The notes under the pieces were generated by a model, which worked only from the letters and a program-made list of their open reading frames with translations, was not told the DNA's origin and made no database searches. Below are positions 5,434 to 36,965 of a stretch of 64,000 nt of DNA, one piece after another. Source of the stretch: a phage. Each line of letters begins with the position of its first letter. Positions within the stretch are counted from its first letter, which is position 1. Made by a program: the position numbers and the translations under genes. The stretch lies in the NCBI GenBank assembly GCA_025611195.1, contig GCA_025611195.1_4718.2; one strand, written 5' to 3'.

Positions 5434-5451
5434 CCCTCCCCGAAGGGAGGG
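5434..5451 (-). terminator. GC-rich stem-loop CCCTCCC-CGAA-GGGAGGG
   Basis: Perfect 7-bp inverted repeat between two minus-strand genes; no clear U-tract. Confidence 0.4.
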
Positions 5452-5461
5452 CGGTTAATGA

Positions 5462-6019
5462 TTACTCCATCCATACTTCTTCGTCGTAATGATTTTCTAT
5501 CGCATTACGCCAAAAACGTACGGTGTCCAAACTAATCGGTGCGTAAAAATGTTGGTCAACGCCTACATTAAGTCCGTTGGCCTTCGCTAACATACAGCGA
5601 TGAATATGCCCGAATAGATTGAAGTAGCCCGGGTTTCTTTCGCTGGGTTTATGGCATAGCCAGTAGGATTCGTCATTGCTAATCGGCAATACCAACGGAT
5701 GTTCATAAACAGCAGCAAACCCCATACCGAGCAGTTTATCACGCCACGCGTCGAAGCTTAATCCTGTCGCTTTGTATGCGTCTTCGTCCCAATTCCCCAT
5801 TACCAATTGAACCTGGATATCAGAACGAATGGCTTCCACGAACTCGAACTTACCCCAATCACCTAAATGCCACAACACACTGTTCTTTGGAAGATTGTTG
5901 ATGGCTTTCAGCATATGTTGGTTCATATCGGCGACGCTTGCGAACGGACGGCGTGAATACGTCCATGTACGCTCGCTATCGAAATGGGTATCCGATGTAA
6001 AGAAGATGGGTGGGGTCAT
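5462..6019 (-). CDS. calcineurin-like metallophosphoesterase
   Basis: Motifs FTSDTHFD, LGDWG, GNWDED, GHIHR match the D-x-H / GD / GN(H)D / GHxH metallophosphatase pattern. Confidence 0.6.
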   Translation of the reverse strand: MTPPIFFTSDTHFDSERTWTYSRRPFASVADMNQHMLKAINNLPKNSVLWHLGDWGKFEFVEAIRSDIQVQLVMGNWDEDAYKATGLSFDAWRDKLLGMGFAAVYEHPLVLPISNDESYWLCHKPSERNPGYFNLFGHIHRCMLAKANGLNVGVDQHFYAPISLDTVRFWRNAIENHYDEEVWME

Positions 6020-6498
6020 TGATCTAATTGCTCCAGAAATGCGCGACCCGATTTACTTGCTTTTAAATGCTGTTCTGCGGAAGTAAGCAGAAGATCGGTT
6101 GGTGTGAATGCAGCGCTACCTTTCCACGCCGTTTTCAGTTTACCCTTTTCGATACTGAACTGAATCAGTTGTTGGGTACCGAAGTTAAGCGTGTTCGTCG
6201 CGGCGCTAAATACACCACCCATCATGCTGTAACCAAAGACTTTCACATTTTCCGTGTAGAAGTCATTGTCGATCAATTTGTTCTGGAGCTCGAGTTGATC
6301 GGACGGCAGCAATCCCCCATCAAAGACACTTAAAATACCAGCCAGGCGATACATACTCACCTTCCCTGCAACGCCCACCACGTAATTGCCATACACGGTT
6401 TCTTCCAGTTTAGCAACAACGGTGCGATCGTCGGAGGTTTTCATCGAAACCTCAATACCATCACCAACTTCTGTCAACGTTAAATCAACGATACTCAT
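6016..6498 (-). CDS. hypothetical protein (160 aa)
   Basis: ORF track; 4-nt overlap with upstream gene. Confidence 0.55.
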   Translation of the reverse strand: MSIVDLTLTEVGDGIEVSMKTSDDRTVVAKLEETVYGNYVVGVAGKVSMYRLAGILSVFDGGLLPSDQLELQNKLIDNDFYTENVKVFGYSMMGGVFSAATNTLNFGTQQLIQFSIEKGKLKTAWKGSAAFTPTDLLLTSAEQHLKASKSGRAFLEQLDQ

Positions 6499-6520
6499 TC
6501 ATCATTCTCCGCTTTCATGT

Positions 6521-7207
6521 TTAACACATGATTTCACCATGTTTCTTTTCAACATACGTATAAACATCATCCAAATAAGCAATGAGTTTATCCCGATTTG
6601 CACAAAGCGATTTAATCACCGCAATCTCTTTCATATAAAGCTGCTGACCTAACGCCGGATAAGTAATCCAAGCATAGCCGTCAGGCGCAAATTTAGAAAT
6701 AAGATAATCGGCGGTTTCCTGTAGTGCGAACTCTTTACTCATCTGACCGTAACGATGTTCGATTGCACGGATACCAAAACGTTCGCTATCCAGACGACCC
6801 ATATCCGCCAAACGAAGCACCTGAGAAGCAACCGAGCTACGTGGACCGGAGTATGAGGCGCGGTGTTCAGCAATAAGTACACGTATCTCCTCGATGTCTT
6901 CTGGTGTGAAAATATGTTGCTCGTTACGAAGCAGGATAACCGATGCACGAATACCTCCGATAAGGTGGTGGTACGTTCTGTTTTCGTGGCATGCAATATC
7001 ATGCATAAAAGCGGCAGTTAATAGACGACGACGTTCCGTGGGTCTGATGATGCCAACCACATCGGCAAGTTCATTTGCCAATTCGACAACAGCAAGCACG
7101 TGTTCTTCTTGATGAGCAAGATCATTTTTACGAATATTATCAATTACTTCAGTGCGTGTTTCCTGAGATAAGAAATTTAGACAATCCAACGAATATAAAG
7201 ATTTCAT
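6521..7207 (-). CDS. HD-domain phosphohydrolase candidate
   Basis: AAFMHDIACHE contains an H..HD signature; first gene after promoter motif at 7261-7280. Confidence 0.45.
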   Translation of the reverse strand: MKSLYSLDCLNFLSQETRTEVIDNIRKNDLAHQEEHVLAVVELANELADVVGIIRPTERRRLLTAAFMHDIACHENRTYHHLIGGIRASVILLRNEQHIFTPEDIEEIRVLIAEHRASYSGPRSSVASQVLRLADMGRLDSERFGIRAIEHRYGQMSKEFALQETADYLISKFAPDGYAWITYPALGQQLYMKEIAVIKSLCANRDKLIAYLDDVYTYVEKKHGEIMC

Positions 7208-7260
7208 CGCACGTACCTCTTTGAATCGGTAGATAGATTAATAGATATTGATTACTCACG

Positions 7261-7280
7261 TAAGTAATATAGCCGTGAAA
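7261..7280 (-). promoter_or_regulatory. promoter-like motif, minus-strand TTTCACGGCTATATTACTTA
   Basis: 20-mer identical to 30572-30591; TATATTAC core 57 nt upstream of the HD-domain operon start; hairpin immediately downstream. Confidence 0.5.
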
Positions 7281-7360
7281 GGATTTGTGTTGGTCCGTTT
7301 CGATGCCCATCGTATTTTATGGATTGTCGAATGACGTCATTTTTAAGGGACATCCCCGAC

Positions 7361-7389
7361 CTCCTCCCCACACCTTTCCTGGGGAGGAG
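7361..7389 (+). terminator. stem-loop CTCCTCCCCA/TGGGGAGGAG followed by TTTTAT
   Basis: 10-bp inverted repeat with plus-strand U-rich tail in the helicase leader. Confidence 0.4.
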
Positions 7390-9538: not shown

Positions 9539-9604
9539 TATGCTGCGTTCGCTGCAAAATCGTATGACGTATATGCGTTGTACTTATTAAATAGGACTGA
9601 ATAC

Positions 9605-11056
9605 ATGAAACTCAAACAAAGCTGGAAAGACGAACTTCTTGCGTTAGTAAATAGCAAAAACAGTTTACAGCTGACATTAGACGACGTAAAATTTGAACTA
9701 ACTGAACCGGTAAGCGAAGTGCCCGGAACGGTTACTGTCACGATCAAACCGAACGATGATAGCCGTTACTTTAACGAGCAGTCTCTGACCTACGTTCGTC
9801 GAGACATCGCTAAAAACTTCACCGGGATCCCGTTACGGGTTATCGTTAAAAATGATACCGCCGTAAAGGATATCATCAACACGATCGCTGAACGTTACGG
9901 ATTGGTATTTGACACAACCGTCGACTTCCTCGAATCCGAGCTGAATAAACAAATTACGTTCGCAGACACCGGTATTAAAGACATCACGGTTCCGGTTGCA
10001 AACACGTCTTATGTTTGGGCTGGTAATCTTCAGTTCAACATTGCTAACGATACGTTAAGCTTGATTACGATCATCAAGAAAACCGATCTTACGAATCTGG
10101 TTTATCTGGATGGTGTTGAAGCTGATACAACGGGATCGTTACTATTAGCAACGACCTCGGTTATCGACGAAAACGGAAATACCGAAACAACTGAAGGTGT
10201 CCTTGACGCCGCGCACTTCCAGAATGTCCTGAACGTCATGGTTCGTTATGGTGATATTACCAACGAACAAATGCAACAAGCAATGCAGACAATTAACCAA
10301 AGCGAAGACGTTCGTAGAGTAGAGGTGAGATCATACGGTGACGCCGAATTACTGGTAACCACCAAGAAAGATTGGGCTATCGGTAGCCTTAAGGGTGCTA
10401 TGGCTGTTGGACGCGCTTCACCTAAACCGATCCAATACGTTCTTAAAACAAAAGGCGGCAGCATTATATTATCATTAAATGGTTGGACAAATGTTTCCAT
10501 CGATTGGGGTGATGGGAATAAGACGACGGAGGACTCAGTCGATAATGAATATCGGCACAATTATACGGACACTACAGAACGTACGATCGTCGCTACGGGT
10601 ACCCCTACCAACGTTGAAGATACAGAGGTACAGCAAAGCTTCACCGGTGGTAACATTACAGAAATCGTTGACTGGAACAACGGATTACCTAAGGCCCCAT
10701 CATTACTTGCGGCGAACAGTTTAACTAAGGTTCCTAATTATATCCCGGCATACTGGACATCGTTAGAAGGTATGTTTACGAGATGTAGCGTTATTAACGA
10801 CGTGAACATCACCAAATGGAACACCCGCAACATTACTTCAATGAAGGACCTCTTCTACGGTTGCGCTGCGTTCAACCAACCGATCGGTTCGTGGGATGTT
10901 TCGTCTGTTAAGAATATCGACAATATGTTGTCTGGATGCTTCGCGTTCAATCAGGATCTGAGTGGTTGGACATTCCCGGCAGGCACTTCACACATTAACT
11001 ACGACGCCATGACCGCCGTGTGGAGTACTGAACACAAACCACACTTCACCGAGTAA
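9605..11056 (+). CDS. protein with C-terminal DUF285/BspA-like repeats
   Basis: Track start is TTG at 9578; ATG at 9605 has AGGA RBS; C-terminus carries repeated FxxCxxFNQ(P/D)(I/L)xxW units. Confidence 0.55.
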   Translation: MKLKQSWKDELLALVNSKNSLQLTLDDVKFELTEPVSEVPGTVTVTIKPNDDSRYFNEQSLTYVRRDIAKNFTGIPLRVIVKNDTAVKDIINTIAERYGLVFDTTVDFLESELNKQITFADTGIKDITVPVANTSYVWAGNLQFNIANDTLSLITIIKKTDLTNLVYLDGVEADTTGSLLLATTSVIDENGNTETTEGVLDAAHFQNVLNVMVRYGDITNEQMQQAMQTINQSEDVRRVEVRSYGDAELLVTTKKDWAIGSLKGAMAVGRASPKPIQYVLKTKGGSIILSLNGWTNVSIDWGDGNKTTEDSVDNEYRHNYTDTTERTIVATGTPTNVEDTEVQQSFTGGNITEIVDWNNGLPKAPSLLAANSLTKVPNYIPAYWTSLEGMFTRCSVINDVNITKWNTRNITSMKDLFYGCAAFNQPIGSWDVSSVKNIDNMLSGCFAFNQDLSGWTFPAGTSHINYDAMTAVWSTEHKPHFTE

Positions 11057-25201: not shown

Positions 25202-25293
25202 AACAACCTCTTTTCGCGGTTCCCTGTTAAAACGTCTTCGGCGACGTCTACCACAAAGGTAACATTTATGTCGCCTCTATGACTTTGTTCATA

Positions 25294-25313
25294 GAGGTAA
25301 TATAAGCGTGAAT
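25294..25313 (-). promoter_or_regulatory. promoter-like motif, minus-strand ATTCACGCTTATATTACCTC
   Basis: Same consensus; about 95 nt upstream of gene start 25201; abuts hairpin 25274-25297. Confidence 0.45.
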
Positions 25314-25443
25314 AATTTTGGATTCCGGCTGAGTTATCGCTCAGCATGCAAGGCATCCCGCCGAAGCGAGACACCTTGCACTAACGGAAGATATTCGCGT
25401 TACCTTCTGAGTCTTCGATTCAGAATGCGAAGCTGAAGCATTA

Positions 25444-27122: not shown

Positions 27123-28265
27123 TCATGGCAACGTATCAAGCCAAGCAGAAACCTTTAAGGCATCAACGTTCGGGTATTTATTACGGATGCGTTCGACCAG
27201 CAAACGCTTAACGTTGTCCTTTGTCAAGTCCCCGCCTTTCTCGATAACGTTATTGACAAAACTGTTCTTTAATAACGACTGGTTGTTCTTGGCGTCCGTT
27301 TTAATTGTCCAGATAAAACCTGGATACAAAGAAGGGATAGAACGAAACGTTTTCGCTGCGTCGTCTTCCTTATCACAACGTATTCGGATGTGATCGCCCT
27401 TCTTCAATGAAGCCAATTCCCGTTCCAATACACGAATGATTTCATCTCCAACAAGACCGTGCAGTTTTATCGTCTTGTAGACATCTGCTTTCTTGTTCTC
27501 AACAAATTCCCATTGGTCGTTAAACGATTCTGTTAACGTATAACGGAGGTACCCCTTTGGACCTTCTTCGCCATGCGACAAGCGACCGAACGAACCGCCA
27601 ACCATGATACGTCCTTTCTGGGATTGTAAGTGGATATGCCCACTCACGACCCACCCTTGGGTCTTCTCTACCATTGCGTTATACGCATCGCTGCTATGAA
27701 CACATGTCGCTTTTAACGCTTCTGGTGGAAGCTGATATTCAAACGCGCCGTGCATCAGAATGAAGTCCGGCGATCCCTTCTCATCAATAAGTCGGTTCAC
27801 AGCCGACAACGTCACATCCGGATCGTGGCTGTAGTTATCTGGAAGATAGAGCACTTTTAAACCAAAGTCTTCATCAACCATGCAGAGATCATCGTAATAA
27901 CGAACTTTCGCTCCTATCTCCATGACCTCGTTCTGTTCAACGAACCACTGGCTTTGCTTCTGGTCATGTAAATTGGTACCTTCAAGAAAGATCAACGTAA
28001 TATCGTGTTTTCTCGCATACCGTAACAACCAGGTACCCCAGGCACGAACAGCAACCACGTCACTCGTTACAAATGTCGTAATACGATCGAAGACATCACC
28101 ACTGAATGTAATCACGTCAAGCAGCGCAGGATCTTCTTTTGTGATATAATAACGTAGCTGGCTAATCAGATTCACTGTCGGTGTTTGACGATGGATAAAG
28201 TGAATATCCGACAAGTTGATTCCTCGTAATACCCCAGGCGTTTTATTTCGACTGAAGTCTCGCAT
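27123..28265 (-). CDS. Mre11/SbcD-like nuclease (calcineurin-like phosphoesterase)
   Basis: Ordered motifs NLSDIHF, SGDVFD, EGTNLHD, MHGAFE, SGHIH match metallophosphoesterase motifs I-V. Confidence 0.55.
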   Translation of the reverse strand: MRDFSRNKTPGVLRGINLSDIHFIHRQTPTVNLISQLRYYITKEDPALLDVITFSGDVFDRITTFVTSDVVAVRAWGTWLLRYARKHDITLIFLEGTNLHDQKQSQWFVEQNEVMEIGAKVRYYDDLCMVDEDFGLKVLYLPDNYSHDPDVTLSAVNRLIDEKGSPDFILMHGAFEYQLPPEALKATCVHSSDAYNAMVEKTQGWVVSGHIHLQSQKGRIMVGGSFGRLSHGEEGPKGYLRYTLTESFNDQWEFVENKKADVYKTIKLHGLVGDEIIRVLERELASLKKGDHIRIRCDKEDDAAKTFRSIPSLYPGFIWTIKTDAKNNQSLLKNSFVNNVIEKGGDLTKDNVKRLLVERIRNKYPNVDALKVSAWLDTLP

Positions 28266-29047
28266 CAGAATTCCTCTAAGTTACTGCTGCTAATAGCCCC
28301 CGTCGTAGACGACACGTTTTTACTGCTCGCCGACGCTGTTGTTGAAGAAGTTCTGGCTAGATTCAATCCGTTTAATAACCCACGCTCTTTTACCGTACGA
28401 CGCGAACCATCACGAACGTCGTAAAGGGGTACGTTATAATGGTCAAAAATCCGAAGCCATTGCACGTAATCAGCAACAACATGGTCTTTGCTTTCATTCG
28501 GAGCAAAGCGATCAAGCTGATGGTCAACGTAAGCTTTAGCGCTTTCAGGATTGAAGTTATACTGTCGACGTGCTTTATCCACCATCGCGAGGAAACACGT
28601 GTTGGGGTCACGATTGATGTATGAACGCGTCCGGATAAAGATAGCCGGTACCGTAAACAGAACCTTGTTGTTATTCCCGTCAGTGACAATATTAACGGCA
28701 CGATGTGGTTGACCTGCTATCTTACACCAATCGTGAACAATGGTACTGTTACTCAGCATCTCCGCGTATTCAGGATCCTGAGAAAACATACCCGCGAACG
28801 GATACAAGAAATGTTTAACAAACAGCGATTCGGGCAGGATGTTGGGACGCGTCATCTCCTGTAAACCTTTTCGTAGAAGCTCGCTGTTGTCTACCAGCTC
28901 CTGCCACATGTCCGGTCGTGTTTTCGGGATGGACGGATCCTGAGCGCGACGAATGCGTTCTTCCTCATTTACAACCACTACCCCAGCCGGATACCCCAAT
29001 AAATCCGTTCCTTCGCTAACGTTGCTGTTAGTTTGGCGCGCCTTCAT
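28265..29047 (-). CDS. hypothetical protein with Ser/Thr-rich C-terminus (260 aa)
   Basis: ORF track. Confidence 0.55.
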   Translation of the reverse strand: MKARQTNSNVSEGTDLLGYPAGVVVVNEEERIRRAQDPSIPKTRPDMWQELVDNSELLRKGLQEMTRPNILPESLFVKHFLYPFAGMFSQDPEYAEMLSNSTIVHDWCKIAGQPHRAVNIVTDGNNNKVLFTVPAIFIRTRSYINRDPNTCFLAMVDKARRQYNFNPESAKAYVDHQLDRFAPNESKDHVVADYVQWLRIFDHYNVPLYDVRDGSRRTVKERGLLNGLNLARTSSTTASASSKNVSSTTGAISSSNLEEF

Positions 29048-29435
29048 TTACTTCCTCCTGCCACTTGACAAAATTACCACGCTCGGATCGCAGAACACCA
29101 CCCAGATCGTACGATATACCTTTCTCTGTGACAATCCCACCAATCTGGAGATCGACACGTTCCGTCGTCGGATCGATATACTTGACACGGACTTTCAATT
29201 CCACACGATCGTAATAACGCATTAAATAATCATACAACATCCGGTATGTCGCATCTTCCAATTTGGGTGCGCTATACTGCGATGTTGCAATGAGGTACGG
29301 TAGTGAAACGATGGAACCTTGATAGCAATACGACTGGGAATAATTCGATATTGCGAAATTGGTCATTAACCCATCCAGCTTTTTTCCCGACGCGGTTAAA
29401 AAGCTCGACAGCCCAGGTAACGGATTCGATGCCAT
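29028..29435 (-). CDS. hypothetical protein (135 aa)
   Basis: ORF track. Confidence 0.55.
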   Translation of the reverse strand: MASNPLPGLSSFLTASGKKLDGLMTNFAISNYSQSYCYQGSIVSLPYLIATSQYSAPKLEDATYRMLYDYLMRYYDRVELKVRVKYIDPTTERVDLQIGGIVTEKGISYDLGGVLRSERGNFVKWQEEVNEGAPN

Positions 29436-29448
29436 GAGGAACTCCTCT

Positions 29449-29898
29449 TTAAGCGTAATTCATTCCAACCAATCTATCGTAGTTAGGCATATGCCCTAAC
29501 TTCAGTTCGACAGGCACGGATACATTGGTACGCGGTGCGTAAAATGTTCGCGTATGCATATCGATATACCCACAGTCCAAATAAACAATATCAGACAACT
29601 CTGCCGGATGTTTAGGTGTGGGAATCTTTAGTCGATTATAACACTCAAGCTGCCACCAGGCATGAAAAAAGTTATTGTAGGCGTACGATTTACTGTTGGC
29701 AACTTTAAGTCCGTAGACAACCCATAACGTCGCCATGAAGTTGGTTGCGTTAATTCGCATCGGTTGTTCATTATTGAGCATGTGCGTGTAGGTAAACAGC
29801 GGTGTGTTACCATCGCCGAAACGTCCGACCAGGGTATTGTTCGTACGTTCGACCTCAAAGGAAAAATGCTGGCTGCTATTGCCATCAAAATGGATCAT
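29449..29898 (-). CDS. hypothetical protein (149 aa)
   Basis: ORF track. Confidence 0.55.
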   Translation of the reverse strand: MIHFDGNSSQHFSFEVERTNNTLVGRFGDGNTPLFTYTHMLNNEQPMRINATNFMATLWVVYGLKVANSKSYAYNNFFHAWWQLECYNRLKIPTPKHPAELSDIVYLDCGYIDMHTRTFYAPRTNVSVPVELKLGHMPNYDRLVGMNYA

Positions 29899-29973
29899 TC
29901 TGTTCTCCTCAAGCTTTTCATTTCATAGAGTGGTGGAAATTCGTAGAAAGTTACAAAAATAAAAAGAATGGGT

Positions 29974-30004
29974 AGTCCCTCCCCACCCGAAGGTAGGGAG
30001 GGAC
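29974..30004 (-). terminator. stem-loop GTCCCTCCC/GGGAGGGAC
   Basis: 9-bp inverted repeat after the stop of 30016-30480. Confidence 0.45.
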
Positions 30005-30015
30005 CACAGATGTAT

Positions 30016-30480
30016 TTAAACCAATGCCGCGATAACGTCGTTAACATTACGACCGCGCAACTCTGCCGCCAAACGAATAACTTCATCCAGGGAACGGTTT
30101 GTACGAATCTTAGCTACTTTCCAATTTTCAGGATACTGTTCGAAGTTAAGTAACCAAGTCATTACCTTTGCTTGTTCCACACCGTTGAGTTTGATTGTCG
30201 TGCGCGGATTGGCTTTGAACCACTTCTTGCTCAGCTGTGCCATACGGCGAACAGGGTAAGCGTAAGCGCGAGTCCAATCTTTGGACAGATTGTCGAGTAA
30301 CTCACGGTAGCTGCTATCGTAGTCTTTGTTGATACGACGTAATAACCAGTTGGCGGTCATCTGATAGAGTTTATCATCTTCACGTAACCGCATCCCTGCT
30401 ACTGCTAAATAAACGATAAGACCTGCACCCATGATGAGAGACAGGATAAACAGAACTTGGGTTTCTTGTGCTAAAGTCAT
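30016..30480 (-). CDS. membrane protein with one N-terminal transmembrane helix
   Basis: Hydrophobic stretch VLFILSLIMGAGLIVYLAVAG; first gene after promoter motif 30572-30591. Confidence 0.55.
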   Translation of the reverse strand: MTLAQETQVLFILSLIMGAGLIVYLAVAGMRLREDDKLYQMTANWLLRRINKDYDSSYRELLDNLSKDWTRAYAYPVRRMAQLSKKWFKANPRTTIKLNGVEQAKVMTWLLNFEQYPENWKVAKIRTNRSLDEVIRLAAELRGRNVNDVIAALV

Positions 30481-30571
30481 TTTTACTATCCTCGGATTTC
30501 GTTAGGATTTGATTTCCAATATAAGGACAATGTGATATGCCTTATACAGTCGATTGATGTTGTACATCACT

Positions 30572-30591
30572 TAAGTAATATAGCCGTGAAA
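30572..30591 (-). promoter_or_regulatory. promoter-like motif, minus-strand TTTCACGGCTATATTACTTA
   Basis: Identical 20-mer; 92 nt upstream of membrane-protein gene start 30480. Confidence 0.5.
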
Positions 30592-30600
30592 AATGTTGGA

Positions 30601-31416
30601 TTAACGTGTTCTCCTATCACGATGCGTATACGACTGAAGACCGATGTCCATATGCGGTAACGTCAGCGTCTGCCAGATCTGTCGTGCGTAGCGATCGAGT
30701 GTATGGTCGTCAGTAACACAATCGACTGGTTCGATGAGGTGAGTCGTATACTGGCTTTTCTCGGAGAAAGGTTCGATGTTAGCGGTGTCCCCTAATCCGC
30801 TTTTCACCGTGAAGACGAGACGGGTAATTATCATCGCCTTATGCTGCTGTTCATTATAGCGAAGGCTACGATATACAGCATAGCTCCCCCCTTTTAGGCT
30901 TCGGGTATAACGAAGGTCGGAGGTCGTCTCGGAAATCTGATACAACATCCAATCCAACGTATCACGCCAGTACGCATCATCCACATCAGGAACCGTGATG
31001 CCATAACGCGTAGGCAGCAGTTCTAAAAGCAGTTTATAAAGTCCACGACGCAGACCATGCTCTTCTGTTTCAGACAAACCGTTTCCAACGTAACGTGAGA
31101 TACGCGTACGTAAATACGTACGGATGAACATATTTGTCATCAGTGATTTCGCGCTACTACTGTTATCCTCAAAGCGATCAACACTGAAACTCGTTTCAAT
31201 CAGCTGCCCATTAAAGTACAATGCGGCAACATACATCGCATTACTGCTATCTCGTTCAATGTTTAAACGCCCGCAGATATTGGCTGCGTCGTTCATGGTA
31301 AATTCTAACTTATCGTGTTCGATACGGTAAATAATATCCTCTTGGGTTGCTAAGCTCGCAATGCGACGATAACCCGGAGAAGTGCGTTTTACACCCATGA
31401 TTGTCCTCGTTTTCAA
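30601..31416 (-). CDS. hypothetical protein (271 aa)
   Basis: ORF track. Confidence 0.55.
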   Translation of the reverse strand: MKTRTIMGVKRTSPGYRRIASLATQEDIIYRIEHDKLEFTMNDAANICGRLNIERDSSNAMYVAALYFNGQLIETSFSVDRFEDNSSSAKSLMTNMFIRTYLRTRISRYVGNGLSETEEHGLRRGLYKLLLELLPTRYGITVPDVDDAYWRDTLDWMLYQISETTSDLRYTRSLKGGSYAVYRSLRYNEQQHKAMIITRLVFTVKSGLGDTANIEPFSEKSQYTTHLIEPVDCVTDDHTLDRYARQIWQTLTLPHMDIGLQSYTHRDRRTR

Positions 31417-32133: not shown

Positions 32134-34723
32134 TTAGCAATGGTTGTTAGTTGCTTCTATTTCATCAAGATACGGTTCTACGTCATCGCCCTCCACGAAT
32201 TCGTTGAACCAACAGTCAATGGTAGAAATAACCGGTGACTGGTGTTCACATTTCTTAGATACCTTAAAAGGTACGTTATTATCCATCATACCGAGTTCGG
32301 GTCGAAAACGCCCGAAATGTTTCGCAGTCCAAATGTCTGGGACGATATGGTTGTTCATCGTGGTGTTCAGCATGAGTCGCTACCTCATACCCGCAGCTTT
32401 ACCTGCAGCTTCCGGTGTTACCGGAATGTCCAGAATACATCTTATCCATATTCCAAATGGAACGTAGGACTTCCGCGCTGGATCTCGCTTGAGACCACGT
32501 ATTCGTTGAACGTTCTCCTGAACGGAGCTTCGCTGCTGATCGAACATTGTCGTGTACGGTAGGCATCCCCGAAGGGATTGTCATTGAAGCCGCGTACATC
32601 CGCTACCTTGTTTCTACCTTATCGGTTCCTCTTACGAGGCGTAGCGGCCTTAGCCCTTCCCAGCAATTCACGGAATCCAAGCTCTTCCTTTCGGAAGGCA
32701 GGGCCTATGATTAAGCATCCCCGTCGCTGTTATCGACTATATCTTCATCCTCGTTGCGAGGAGTCTCCCGTTTGGGTCTGTGTTTAACAGAGCCTACTCT
32801 ACTCAACATCGCGTCTTTCGATAGTCTGTGAGCACACATCTTAACGAACATTCGTGGATTCCTAAACAGGTGAACGTTCTTGTTGAGATGCTTCGCTGCG
32901 GATTATTCCCGTCCTACCTCTTTTACCGTACCCAGTTCATTACGCTGGCCCTCATCTATGTCACCATGATGAGTTGGTGTGTAGTCCGATTACAGAAACT
33001 TCCCGTCAATTAGAGAGTTTTAACTACGTTCCTGTTACCAGAAACCAGATCCCGACGGTATCAATAAATCAACGTAAGTTATTGATTTAATTGAAAAACT
33101 GAAATCTGCATTATCTAAATCTTCAGTATGGTTCGCTACTCCATACCCGTACCTCATGTACTGCTTACGTCTTTCACGTAAGGATAGACTATATCTTTCA
33201 CCCTCAGCATTATCTGGTCGGGGCTCCCATTTCGGCGGTCAGATGACCGGTGGTTTCCCACGCCGCTTGGCCCTAACGCCCGTAAGCGATAGTCGTTGAG
33301 CACATCTCCGTTCTGGAGACTTCGCTGCGGATTCCCCAATCCTTGCCGCTTTTACCGTACCTGAATGATTAGTTCAGCCCCACGCTCTGTTCCCAGGCAT
33401 GGTTGGTGGACGAGGCTCTAAGTAGGTTCCCGCATTAGAGAGTTCCTCGTAACAACATTTCTGCGTTACTGGGCCTAACGACCCTTTCAAGATCATCACG
33501 CTTAACCCGATGGTGTTATCCTGCGGATCGCGTTTAACCTTGGTGATTTCAAGACATTGGTTACTGCTTCGGTCAAGTGATGGGTTTCGAACAAAGCCGC
33601 ACACAATCCCATCGAACGGTGTATCAGCAATAAGCTCATCATGCAGCTCGCTCATCATCGGATGATAATTACGGACATGTTCCGCAACGAACGCACGTGC
33701 TGCTCTCGGTGAATAACCGCGATGGAATAACTTGGATTGGATATGTTCTTTATTGGTTAAAGTAAATGGTGCGTATGGGAAATGCAGATGATAATAACGA
33801 TGGTTCGCTGTTATCGAACTGATTACGGTACGCGTGGTGAATGGATGTAATGTACCTAATATGTTTTTACGCGTGATACCTTTCTTCTTACCGATGAACT
33901 CATCGAAAATCGCCGCGTGGTATTGCAGCAGCTTCAATTGCACTTTCGCCATCCAGTTTTCTTTCTTTCTGGCGCTCAAAGGTGTTGTTGGATGATAGAT
34001 ACTATTCAGTGTACCAATAGCATCGATCGCACCTTCCATTTTGCTATCTGCATAACGGCCGGTCGGTGTATTTTCGATAACGAACATCATGGCCGCAGGA
34101 AAGCTGATATACTGACTGAAGAACTTATCACGATGGATACGGATGAATTCTCGTAGCGTGTCAACTTTCTCTGTGTTCTTCGGTCCACGTAATGTGGGTC
34201 CTTTATACAAGATCTCCATGATGCGATCGAAGTTCTGTATAAAGCTATTTACACCACGCCGTATCCCGAATACATCAAATTGCTGCTCCAGATAGTTCTT
34301 GAGTTCAATGGGTCGTTTTACATTTGGACGGTAACTGGCATCAATGAGCCACGTCATCGTTTCGAAGCTTTTGATATTCAACTCGCTTGCCAGCACGAGA
34401 TGGACCAACGGGTTAATGAACGCATCGATTCCTTCAGGGACACGCGCCCAGACCGTCGAACGAATCTCCTGTTCTGCTGGGTAGGTTACAACCGTTTTAC
34501 AGTTTGGACACACCGTGCCGAGCAACTCACCGCGATTGTAGAAACCACAACCACATTGTGGCGTGATATCCAACGTATCGCTGGAGTAAACACGGGTGAT
34601 AAAACTGTTTAATTTCTTCTTCTCTTCGACGACTTTTGTATCGTAATCGTTCAACAAAATCGGCGTAAAGGGAAGTTCTGCGAGCTGTCTATCGAAACTC
34701 ACGATATCGAGCATGATGGCCAT
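32134..34723 (-). CDS. multisubunit RNA polymerase beta-prime, N-terminal subunit; proposed 4 exons (34723-33490, 33120-33102, 32726-32714, 32367-32134) split by three group I introns
   Basis: Exon 1 has the Zn-finger (CGCG..CPNC) and RNPSLDRSSNQCLEI (cf NRAPTLHRLGIQAFEP); micro-exons encode LDNADF and DGDA; last exon NTTMNNHIVP (cf QMAVHVP); exon lengths 1234+19+13+234 = 1500 nt keep frame; unspliced ORF ends in intron read-through. Confidence 0.5.
32368..32713 (-). other. group I intron C (ORF-less, about 346 nt)
   Basis: P AATTGCTGGGAAGGG with Q ATCAGCAGCGAAG (compensatory GCTG/CAGC), R CAACGAATACG with S AAGATGTATTC (compensatory P7 change); 3' tail homologous to intron A. Confidence 0.45.
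32727..33101 (-). other. group I intron B (ORF-less, about 375 nt; 3' domain unusually short)
   Basis: P AATTGACGGGAAG, Q AATCCGCAGCGAAG, R GTGCTCACAGACTATCG, S GAAGATATAGTCGATAAC; only about 8 nt between S and the proposed 3' splice G. Confidence 0.4.
33121..33489 (-). other. group I intron A (ORF-less, about 369 nt)
   Basis: Minus-strand elements P AATGCGGGAACC, Q GAATCCGCAGCGAAGTC, R GTGCTCAACGACTATCGC, S AAAGATATAGTCTATCC in correct order; possible P1 pairing exon GAUCU with GGGUC; boundaries approximate. Confidence 0.5.
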
Positions 34724-34815: not shown

Positions 34816-36711
34816 TTAGAACAGGTTGAATGCTCCACCCATGTTGTTACCACCAACATTCGGACGATCGCTACGTGCATAGATGTTGCCGGAGATGTTA
34901 CCCAGACCACGAGCACGTGCTGCTGTGTTACCACGAACGGCGGTACCTGCCAGATGCTGGATGTTCTCAGGACGGATGGTGAAGCCAGCTTCGGCAGCCG
35001 CTTCAATCAATGCCGCAAGCGCATTCGGTTCGAAATCGTAACGCATTGCCCAACCGGTTTGTTCCCAGCTACCAGACAGAACGCGATCGATGATTTCGTG
35101 ACGAGCAACAACACGCTGAGACATCGACATATCGGTACGGTCGAAGCTGTCTTCCCAAGCTTCTACGGTATCCGGGTTAGTGATGTTCATCATGTACAGA
35201 TCGTCCATATCACGAATATCGTGACGGTTACCGTCCTGGTGGTTGTAGTGACCCAGCGGGATACGGTTACCAGTAGCGTAGACTAACGGTTGGCCGTATT
35301 GATATTTCTTGCTGAAGCAACCCAGGGTGGTATCATCGAATGCACGATAGAGTGCTTTATAGCCTTCGGAGATTTCTTGAACTTTACCGTCAACGTTGCC
35401 CGTAAAGATCTTCTCAGCTGCAGGGATCATACGCAGCAACCAGCTATATTCGCCTTCTTCCGGTACGTCGATAGAAATCAGCAGAGACGGATACAGTACC
35501 TGTTGCAGGAACTTGTAAATCTGCTCGTTGGTTTGAGTAGACAGATCCAGCGGTGCAGTAACTTCCGGATCCAGTACCATCGCCAGAGCACCCGGGTTAT
35601 GCGGACCAATACCACGAGCAGCGTTGCTGATTAAAGACTGCGCCCACGCCATACCGCTGTTCAGCGTAGCGATGGTACCAATCAGACCCAGCACAAACGT
35701 GTTCGGAGTGAACGCATCCAGCTCCAGCGGGTAGGCGCTGGTCATCACGTAACGCGGTTGGTACTGTACAGTCGGCGGTACCGGATAACCGTTAACCAGA
35801 ACAGGACCTTGGTTGAAGGTCGGGTTCTGCGGGCTGTAGGTCAGGTCAATGTAACCAGTGGTTGCGACCAGGCGCTGTTGACTATCGTAATCGCTCATCG
35901 CTTGACGGATACGGTTAGAGATAGTTACAGTGATGTCAGAACGCACTGGGTTACCGACGATATCGCTGTCCTGCATACCGCTGGTGTTGTACTGAACGCT
36001 GCTGATCGGCTGATCGCTTGCCATCATGCCCAGGTTGAACTGCGGCAGACCCAGTTTATCGCCGAGACGGATTTCGATCGCGGTTTGGATTGCGTTATCT
36101 GCAGCAGACAGCAGGGTGGTTGCCAGATGCGCAGATTCAGCAGTGATTTCATTGGTCACCACAGCCAGACCGGCGATACGAACAGTACCGTTAGCCTTAC
36201 CGCCAATAGCCGCATACATTGCCGCCATGACTTCGTTGATGAACGTGCCGTTCAGGTTATCAACCCAGGTACGCGGTACCAGAATGTTACCATGCGGACC
36301 TTGTTCTTCACGACGCGGCAGCGGAGCCAAACCGGCAACCAGCGGAAGCACATAACCGAAGAAGTGGTTATGGTCACCAACTTTTGCACCGCTCATAACA
36401 ACCAGGGTCGGATACGGTACACTGTACTGGTTAGGATCGACGGTCACCATGATGAAGTCGTCTTTGAACCCTTTATCTTCCAGTTCTTTCTCCATCAGAC
36501 GACGGAGATTCAGTACCTGCTCGGAGCCAGTATTACGGCTAATACGACGGCTCAGTGTACGGTTGATCGTACGCATCGTATGAGTTACTTTAGGCTGGCC
36601 AGCAAAATCTGCAGCGGTTTCCAGCGCCTCATCAGCACGTTGTGCGGTGCGGGTTTCAGCTGCACGAATTTCTACATTATCGTTACCGTTATTACGTACG
36701 TCTAAGCCCAT
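34816..36711 (-). CDS. chimallin (phage nucleus shell protein) candidate
   Basis: 631 aa, the size recalled for known chimallins; directly upstream of the beta-prime N gene as recalled for phiKZ gp54-gp55; strong preferred-codon bias; first gene after promoter motif 36781-36800; no sequence comparison possible. Confidence 0.4.
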   Translation of the reverse strand: MGLDVRNNGNDNVEIRAAETRTAQRADEALETAADFAGQPKVTHTMRTINRTLSRRISRNTGSEQVLNLRRLMEKELEDKGFKDDFIMVTVDPNQYSVPYPTLVVMSGAKVGDHNHFFGYVLPLVAGLAPLPRREEQGPHGNILVPRTWVDNLNGTFINEVMAAMYAAIGGKANGTVRIAGLAVVTNEITAESAHLATTLLSAADNAIQTAIEIRLGDKLGLPQFNLGMMASDQPISSVQYNTSGMQDSDIVGNPVRSDITVTISNRIRQAMSDYDSQQRLVATTGYIDLTYSPQNPTFNQGPVLVNGYPVPPTVQYQPRYVMTSAYPLELDAFTPNTFVLGLIGTIATLNSGMAWAQSLISNAARGIGPHNPGALAMVLDPEVTAPLDLSTQTNEQIYKFLQQVLYPSLLISIDVPEEGEYSWLLRMIPAAEKIFTGNVDGKVQEISEGYKALYRAFDDTTLGCFSKKYQYGQPLVYATGNRIPLGHYNHQDGNRHDIRDMDDLYMMNITNPDTVEAWEDSFDRTDMSMSQRVVARHEIIDRVLSGSWEQTGWAMRYDFEPNALAALIEAAAEAGFTIRPENIQHLAGTAVRGNTAARARGLGNISGNIYARSDRPNVGGNNMGGAFNLF

Positions 36712-36780
36712 TTGGGATTCCTCTTTTCTTAAACTTTATTAAATGACGTCATTGAATCAGCTTCTACTCGCTCATTCACC

Positions 36781-36800
36781 TAGGTAATATAACCCTGAAA
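36781..36800 (-). promoter_or_regulatory. promoter-like motif, minus-strand TTTCAGGGTTATATTACCTA
   Basis: Same consensus; 70 nt upstream of the chimallin candidate start. Confidence 0.5.
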
Positions 36801-36965
36801 TTTTTTTCAATATTGGTGTAACCACATTGAACGATATAAACCCCTAGGCGAACGCTGCCGAGAAGCAACATTCTTTCTACATATAATCAGGATATGTCTG
36901 TAAACTTTTACTTCTCTTATTGAGAGTAATGTCATATCCGTTTACCATCTTCTTACGGAGTTCGT

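Follow-up and report, generated by a model that had tools for sequence, protein, structure and literature searches.

Escherichia phage vB_EcoM_Goslar (MK327938; NC_048170) is a 237-kb nucleus-forming E. coli jumbo phage that belongs to the Chimalliviridae. In its annotation, gp159 is named as a 'putative HD superfamily hydrolase' and gp157 as a 'putative phosphoesterase or phosphohydrolase', and gp158 and gp178 are listed as hypothetical proteins. The present study deals with the counterparts of these four genes in a stretch of phage DNA of 64,000 nucleotides (NCBI GenBank assembly GCA_025611195.1, contig GCA_025611195.1_4718.2), which is called the window below. Three of them lie side by side on the minus strand. 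They encode an HD phosphohydrolase of 228 aa (HD; 6521-7207, orthologue of gp159), an acidic protein of 160 aa (6016-6498, orthologue of gp158) and a compact metallophosphoesterase of 185 aa (MPE; 5462-6019, orthologue of gp157). The fourth gene, also on the minus strand, encodes an SbcD/Mre11-type nuclease of 380 aa (27123-28265, orthologue of gp178). An earlier sequence-only reading had placed HD and MPE at the head of a promoter-proximal operon, and all four genes are exact open reading frames (ORFs) at those positions. The Goslar gene numbers are used for the orthologues in the window.

The two phages are very close to each other. The four genes have the same order and orientation in both, their identities are 93-96% at the nucleotide level and 96-99% at the amino-acid level, and each window protein differs from its Goslar orthologue at 3-6 residues. 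By megablast, the three-gene region and the nuclease region are both 94-95% identical to Goslar. The Goslar-like genome IMGVR_UViG_3300011560_000001 is closer than Goslar, as it matches the window at 96%, and is not identical to it. Therefore, the window phage is a further, distinct member of the small Goslar-like clade.

We consider it probable that the window holds the early three-gene head (HD, gp158 and MPE) of a Goslar-like jumbo phage and, separately, an SbcD nuclease of the core gene set. The locus is largely ordinary in that its genes are close orthologues of annotated Goslar genes and are of known kinds. What is new here is a class of early promoters, an HD-gp158-MPE unit at the level of the clade, a lead on MPE and gp158 in virion preparations, and an answer to the question of the SbcC partner. 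The phage nucleus shields DNA from nucleases, but cytoplasmic defences that signal by nucleotides still reach the phage, and the nucleotide pools need managing before the nucleus is present. Very few anti-defence or pool-control genes are known in nucleus-forming phages. The locus thus offers a small set of testable candidates. If its enzymes are housekeeping nucleotide hydrolases, the locus is an ordinary one.

Early promoter and transcription unit

The early promoters of phages phiKZ and 201phi2-1 have been described as AT-rich elements a short distance before the transcription start that are conserved at about -10, -20 and -30. They are present in few copies per genome and precede early, often hypothetical, genes. 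The motif found upstream of the HD gene can be likened to them by this description, and it is likewise present in few copies before such genes. A promoter-like motif had already been suggested at this place by the sequence-only reading, and its recurrence bears out the suggestion. The sequence upstream of HD is GGCTATATTACTTACGTGA, and 57 nt separate the 3' end of its TATATTAC core from the HD start codon. As a bare octamer, TATATTAC is not enriched in the window (4 found against 2.6 expected). Its four copies have a much longer consensus in common. When three or fewer mismatches are allowed, the 18-mer TTCACGGYTATATTACYT occurs four times in the window against 0.25 expected, and the complete 42-nt element has the consensus nTAnTnnAAnnnnTTTCACGnCTAyATTACyTnnnTGA.

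All four copies in the window are on the minus strand and intergenic, 57-96 nt upstream of a minus-strand gene. The first copy (7252-7293, with the core TTCACGGCTATATTACTT at 7262-7279) is upstream of HD and scores 47.1 bits with a weight matrix. The second copy (25285-25326), supported by the motif count and the weight matrix, is upstream of the orthologue of gp175, a putative sigma-like factor of the non-virion RNA polymerase (nvRNAP) in the published core-genome table. The third copy (30563-30604) precedes the gp182 orthologue, and the SbcD-like gene follows about 2.3 kb further downstream. The fourth copy (36772-36813) precedes the orthologue of chimallin (ChmA) at 34816-36711. In the reconstructed Goslar genome, there are 12 copies, again all on the minus strand. 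A weight matrix made from these 12 Goslar sites recovered exactly the same 12, with scores of 44-57 bits and no site scoring 12-44 bits, and gave no match on a shuffled genome. The Goslar counterpart of the HD promoter is at record position 142791, and the promoter sequence upstream of HD is the same in Goslar and the window. A sigma-70 promoter was also considered for HD and rejected: no site was found upstream of the gene, and the region has fewer such sites than shuffled controls.

The 12 sites were cross-referenced with Goslar RNA-seq data at 30 min post infection, in which a non-targeting control is compared with a chimallin knockdown (supplement of 10.1101/2023.09.20.558163). The RefSeq HOV27 tags equal the GenBank numbers up to 186 and are reversed after it, and this was accounted for. 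The Goslar genes fall into two classes in this experiment, a nucleus-independent class with a log2 fold change (log2FC) of about 0 to +1.4 and a nucleus-dependent class with -3 to -7. At 12 of the 12 Goslar sites, the first gene after the motif is nucleus-independent (log2FC +0.5 to +1.4). At five of them, the same-strand upstream neighbours, gp22, gp41, gp48, gp76 and gp222, are nucleus-dependent (log2FC -3 to -6). Therefore, the class switches exactly at the motif, in the pairs gp22/gp21, gp41/gp40, gp48/gp47, gp76/gp75 and gp222/gp221. The Goslar counterparts of the genes behind the other three window copies behave in the same way. The values are about +0.9 for gp175, against about -0.5 for gp176 just upstream, about +1.3 for gp182 and +0.7 to +1.1 for ChmA (HOV27_gp246). 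Since the genes behind the motif keep their transcripts without a phage nucleus, the motif marks a phage-specific early promoter. Such a 12-member class of early promoters is useful for both the annotation and the engineering of Goslar-like phages.

The three genes of interest belong to the early class, with log2FC of +0.66 to +1.1 for gp159, gp158 and gp157. On the other side of the promoter region, the reads of the divergent helicase gene gp160 drop from about 1,200 to about 11 on ChmA knockdown. The next same-strand motif in Goslar is 29 kb downstream of HD, and all genes from gp159 through gp106 are nucleus-independent. Therefore, HD heads a very long early unit. Transcription of this long leftward unit would start at the 42-nt promoter. 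The motif is presumably read by the virion RNA polymerase that is injected into the cell, because the orthologous Goslar transcripts are normal or higher when nucleus assembly is blocked. This view leans on the interpretation given in the cited RNA-seq paper and on the description of the phiKZ and 201phi2-1 early promoters.

HD phosphohydrolase

The first gene of this major early unit has a strong Shine-Dalgarno sequence, AAAGAGG. Its product belongs to Pfam HD (PF01966) with an E-value of 5.7e-8 and 33.5 bits against a curated cut-off of 22, and the HD-domain assignment made from the letters alone was thus correct. An exhaustive HMMER search found 344 relatives, against one close relative by a word-indexed search. 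The gene occurs in 97 phage records, of which nearly all are jumbo phages of 210-294 kb. It is widespread in jumbo phages in this sense, and it is outside the published chimallivirus core set. Twelve residues are invariant in 57 aligned relatives: D29, H32, H36, H69, D70, R77, H80, H115, R116, S118, D135 and K172. They include the metal-binding residues H36, H69-D70 and D135. Direct sequence searches of the PDB gave no significant match for the HD, MPE or SbcD-like protein, and family profiles were needed. The HD family profile matched 2PQ7 (E 4e-15), YedJ (E 4e-11) and YpgQ (E 4e-3), and also 3DJB, 3B57 and 2QGS. Foldseek with the AF2 model of HD (pLDDT 94.7) found the same group of stand-alone HD proteins.

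The similarity to YedJ of E. coli (3GW7), YpgQ of B. subtilis (5DQV) and 2PQ7 is significant in both profile and fold, but the sequence identity is only 15-22%. The phage family also differs from these proteins in having the additional invariant residues R77, H80, H115, R116, S118 and K172, which may provide a second site for a metal or phosphate. YpgQ, the best characterised protein of the group, is a Mn-dependent (d)NTP pyrophosphohydrolase, an activity known from the bacterial members only. PenF, which has the same architecture, is a nucleoside-5'-monophosphatase, and the plant orthologue CN-PDE1 has been reported as a cGMP phosphodiesterase. CN-PDE1 and PenF differ in activity, and therefore the substrate of HD is not transferable from its relatives with confidence. 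The phage protein would most likely act on free nucleotides, with phosphodiesterase chemistry also possible. Our best guess is the hydrolysis of (d)NTP to (d)NMP and PPi, through which the enzyme would reshape the pool of nucleotides, or clean it, in early infection.

The sequence-only reading had proposed that the two hydrolases act on nucleotides or on nucleotide second messengers, and this interpretation is partly supported. Its second half can be put as follows. HD and/or MPE, made or delivered at the start of infection, would destroy cyclic mono-, di- or oligonucleotides or alarmones and thereby disarm CBASS, Pycsar, type III CRISPR or Thoeris-like cytoplasmic systems, against which the nucleus offers no protection. 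We regard this as unlikely. No GYP motif is present in the HD sequence or in its alignment, so the protein is not an HD-GYP enzyme. The HD profile is non-significant against cyclic-nucleotide phosphodiesterases (E 0.017 or worse), compared with 4e-15 to 4e-11 for the YedJ-type proteins. In the Pfam scans, no protein of the locus matched Acb1 (PF23474) or the metallo-beta-lactamase Apyc1, and HD and Metallophos were the only families returned. Furthermore, no HD or metallophosphoesterase enzyme appears in the anti-CBASS and anti-Pycsar literature that we found.

Metallophosphoesterase

The sequence-only reading had noted a calcineurin-like phosphoesterase two genes after HD, and the third gene indeed encodes one. 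The MPE protein matches Metallophos_2 with an E-value of 1.8e-7 (31.7 bits against a cut-off of 27) and has more than 300 relatives. Its metal ligands, D10-x-H12, G53-D54, G75-N76, H123 and G137-H138-x-H140, are invariant in 40 relatives and are all present in the window protein. As far as these ligands can tell, MPE is a catalytically intact, minimal two-metal enzyme. Its AF2 model has a pLDDT of 97. The only solved relative is aq_1665 of Aquifex aeolicus (1XM7), which was found by hmmsearch (E 2.8e-12) and by Foldseek (E 7.8e-10, TM 0.66), where it is the sole match below 1e-3. The aq_1665/COG4186 proteins have the compact size of about 185 aa and the metal-ligand motifs in common with MPE. 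However, the identity between aq_1665 and MPE is 20%, and aq_1665 is a structural-genomics protein whose own function is unassigned, so that it offers no clue to the mechanism.

The phage relatives of MPE are distributed in patches over unrelated groups, which include phages of Enterococcus, Streptomyces and Bacillus as well as the Erwinia Yoloswag group. A fusion to a nucleoside 2-deoxyribosyltransferase-like domain occurs in some relatives. The gene neighbourhoods in Yoloswag and EFDG1 contain nothing informative. In an unrelated phage, on an 83-kb contig (L014:1-10540, Logan SRR23387595), an MPE relative is clustered with NADAR and a homologue of Acb1 (anti-CBASS). A DHH/DHHA1 phosphoesterase and a 5'-3' exonuclease are in the same cluster, which may be a counter-nucleotide gene island. 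For MPE itself, this is a weak case of guilt by association, and the occurrence beside Acb1 is a single instance, which counts against a role in the destruction of immune signals.

A different substrate class was also considered. HD and/or MPE might remove 3'-phosphate or 2',3'-cyclic phosphate ends or process DNA ends, which would serve the repair and ligation of phage RNA or DNA, and leave free nucleotides alone. MPE partially matches the ligase-associated endonuclease PdeM (E 3.5e-4), genes for an NAD-dependent DNA ligase (gp121) and for an exonuclease (gp147) are part of the same early unit in Goslar, and host DNA is degraded during Goslar infection. However, the PdeM match is weak. It covers about 30 residues around GHxH and reaches 20 bits, far below the cut-off of 150. 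There is no ligase or kinase gene adjoining HD or MPE, and the characterised relatives of HD act on mononucleotides. The pre-early dmp/A1/A2 genes of phage T5 offer a loose functional analogy. They supply a nucleotide phosphatase, a phosphoesterase-like protein and a small partner at the start of infection, and T5 degrades host DNA, as happens in Goslar infection. Homology to this host-DNA-degradation set was rejected, as hhalign gave probabilities of 0.1-0.5% for all three pairs, and the T5 Dmp, A1 and A2 proteins have no Pfam HD or Metallophos match. A function of HD or MPE in healing ends is accordingly very doubtful, and the action of HD on free nucleotides is still preferred.

gp158 and the virion

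The middle gene of the three could not be placed in any family. The gp158 protein has no match in Pfam, PHROG or NCBIfam. Among phage records it is found in Goslar only, and a search for further relatives in viral contigs returned only Goslar-like genomes. Homologues with 38% identity (E 2e-30) are present in L012 and L013. In the metagenomic contig L012, the divergent helicase, HD, the gp158 homologue and MPE have the same arrangement as in the window at 38-51% amino-acid identity, and a sequence like the early motif is upstream of HD. In L013, the adjacency of gp158 and MPE is kept. A reading in which the three genes are no module was overturned by this synteny of L012 and L013 within the Goslar-like clade. 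On the other hand, a general pair of HD and a small downstream ORF across chimalliviruses was rejected, because RisingSun gp239 and PS1_0247 are similar in size and non-homologous to gp158 (E above 1). The stop codon of gp158 and the start codon of MPE share bases in the window (ATGA), which implies that gp158 and MPE would be translationally coupled.

The Goslar virion has been analysed by liquid chromatography with tandem mass spectrometry (LC-MS/MS), and the copies per virion quoted here are the estimates in Table S4 of that paper (10.64898/2026.04.21.720040). About 926 copies of gp158 were estimated from 19 peptides, and the protein was described as an abundant, unmodelled virion protein without an assigned function (10.64898/2026.04.21.720040). 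MPE (gp157) is listed with about 75 copies, 14 peptides and 63% coverage, a copy level equal to that of the tail fibre protein gp29, and is absent from the discussion of the paper (10.64898/2026.04.21.720040). HD (gp159) is listed with about one copy (10.64898/2026.04.21.720040). The listed masses agree with calculation, as for gp158 with 17,492.8 Da listed and 17,492.6 Da computed. HD thus has 70-800-fold fewer virion copies than its two operon partners despite similar RNA levels. However, chimallin (about 126 copy-equivalents) and PhuZ (about 171), both of them non-virion proteins, are present in this preparation too (10.64898/2026.04.21.720040). Therefore, values below about 200 in Table S4 are on their own no sign of packaging.

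These numbers raise the possibility that gp158 and the coupled MPE are a packaged pair, which is ejected with the DNA so that MPE acts before phage gene expression, and that HD is newly synthesised and cytoplasmic. The strong excess of gp158 and MPE over HD from the same transcription unit speaks for it, together with the ATGA overlap and the adjacency of gp158 and MPE that is maintained in L012 and L013. On the other side, the MPE signal is within the contaminant range given by chimallin and PhuZ, and packaging of MPE as an established fact is excluded for this reason. Furthermore, the gp157 and gp158 transcripts are early and nucleus-independent, unlike those of ordinary structural genes. 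We therefore put this forward only tentatively, as something rather unlikely. A wider version would join the gp158-MPE cargo and the first-transcribed HD into an immediate-early module of nucleotide hydrolysis, which would be active before the nucleus, for example against immune signals or on (d)NTP pools. That version is quite improbable. If true, it would be the first enzyme-bearing anti-signalling cargo in chimalliviruses and would give a first function to the orphan aq_1665 family. Apart from these proposals, the early three-gene head is of interest in that it ties an MPE of an orphan family to a protein that is abundant in virion preparations.

The gp158 protein is not the only one of its kind in the Goslar preparation. 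Several unmodelled proteins that rank among the most abundant ones come from early, nucleus-independent units, namely gp158 with about 926 copies, HOV27_gp214 (Goslar_00221) with about 865 and gp168 with about 219. Of these, HOV27_gp214 comes first behind a copy of the early promoter. The ordinary structural genes are nucleus-dependent, unlike these three.

SbcD-like nuclease and its presumed partner

In E. coli, sbcD and sbcC are adjacent in one operon, and genes 46 and 47 of phage T4 (gp46/gp47) are adjacent as well. The sequence-only reading had described the product of 27123-28265 as Mre11/SbcD-like, and this description is upheld. The protein matches phrog_100 ('SbcD-like') with an E-value of 3e-41, and has no Pfam match. 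The gp178 family profile finds the Thermotoga Mre11/SbcD structure 2Q8U (E 6.6e-11), Pyrococcus Mre11 (about 1e-6) and E. coli SbcD (4e-4). In 33 aligned sequences, D20-x-H22, G56-D57-x-x-D60, H100-D101, H172 and G209-H210-x-H212 are invariant, so that motifs I, II, IV and V are kept. Motif III differs from the canonical GNH[D/E] of Mre11/SbcD. It reads GTPSHD in the family and GTNLHD in the window, where the His-Asp pair is kept and the Asn is replaced or shifted. In the published core-genome table, gp178 is the chimallivirus core gene cg8, a 'putative nuclease' (PhiKZ gp065, RAY gp238).

The sequence-only reading had also stated that no Rad50/SbcC partner was evident nearby. This stands for the window, as no SbcC/Rad50 gene is present in its 64 kb. 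Goslar encodes a putative partner, gp12, far away. Goslar gp12 matches phrog_77 (E 1.9e-74) and has a Walker A motif (GSNGSGKS), a CxxC hook and a Walker B motif. It is cg44 ('SbcC-like', PhiKZ gp165) in the core-genome table, in a different core block from cg8. The SbcC protein is at least 99% identical in two other Goslar-like genomes. By tblastn, 315 phage records have the SbcD-like gene and 287 the SbcC-like gene, the counts per genus are nearly identical, and a distance of about 75-150 kb separates the two in all records that both searches listed. The partner that seemed to be missing is thus probably this conserved, unlinked core gene. As in SbcCD and Mre11-Rad50, a phosphoesterase with motifs I, II, IV and V is matched by a protein with Walker A, CxxC hook and Walker B. 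In contrast to the bacterial sbcDC operon and T4 46/47, the gp178 and gp12 genes are never adjacent. The core SbcD/Mre11 nuclease would presumably process DNA ends and take part in recombination together with the core SbcC/Rad50 ATPase. The neighbours of SbcC in Goslar, gp11 and gp9, were considered as an alternative nuclease subunit and rejected, as they have no nuclease domains.

The two genes respond differently to the chimallin knockdown, in which gp178 falls about 2-fold and gp12 16-50-fold. In the Goslar virion preparation, there are about 2 copies of gp178 and about 3 of SbcC gp12 (10.64898/2026.04.21.720040). In PhiKZ, orf165 (SbcC) tolerates no transposon insertions, and orf65 is not mentioned in the PhiKZ transposon papers. 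The block that contains the SbcD-like gene (window 27123-30480, Goslar gp181 to gp176) shows an intermediate response, with log2FC of -0.4 to -1.3. It sits between two strongly early blocks and is downstream of the gp182 early promoter. The intermediate values suggest a mixed use of promoters, in which early read-through is combined with a nucleus-dependent promoter.

Other features of the window

A GC-rich hairpin, CCCTCCC-TTCG-GGGAGGG followed by UUUAU, is present on the minus strand at 5434-5451, 11 nt after the MPE stop codon. It is unique in the window, with a dG of -16.6 kcal/mol and a z of -3.0. An efficient terminator was rejected here, since the Goslar read density does not drop after gp157. 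At most, the hairpin may act as a leaky terminator or stabilise the RNA. A second stable hairpin lies at 7361-7389, in the intergenic stretch that separates the HD promoter from the divergent SNF2-type helicase gene. It can form on both strands (dG -19.1 kcal/mol and z -4.2 on the plus strand, -21.2 kcal/mol and -3.3 on the minus strand) and was also recovered by a terminator scan. Goslar annotates it as a plus-strand terminator, yet there is no plus-strand gene before it. The two divergent units beside it are of opposite temporal classes, and the hairpin may insulate one from the other. The helicase gene is followed by an ORF at 9578-11056, the orthologue of gp161, with BspA-type leucine-rich repeats. 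Goslar gp161 is a DUF7941 host-recognition candidate according to the Goslar structure preprint, and it is nucleus-dependent with a log2FC of about -5.

The window also differs from Goslar at 32730-33482 (Goslar record 168217-169670). An Rfam scan of the window gave no matches, and no intron reached the gathering threshold in this region. The HNH/NUMOD1 endonuclease gene gp186 of Goslar, about 1.07 kb long, is absent from the window. The adjoining segment, which is annotated as a group I intron in Goslar, is kept at 32730-33114 with 97% identity, and it is followed at 33115-33482 by a 368-bp insertion that is absent from Goslar. The nvRNAP beta-prime-like ORF has 449 aa in the window and 423 aa in Goslar.

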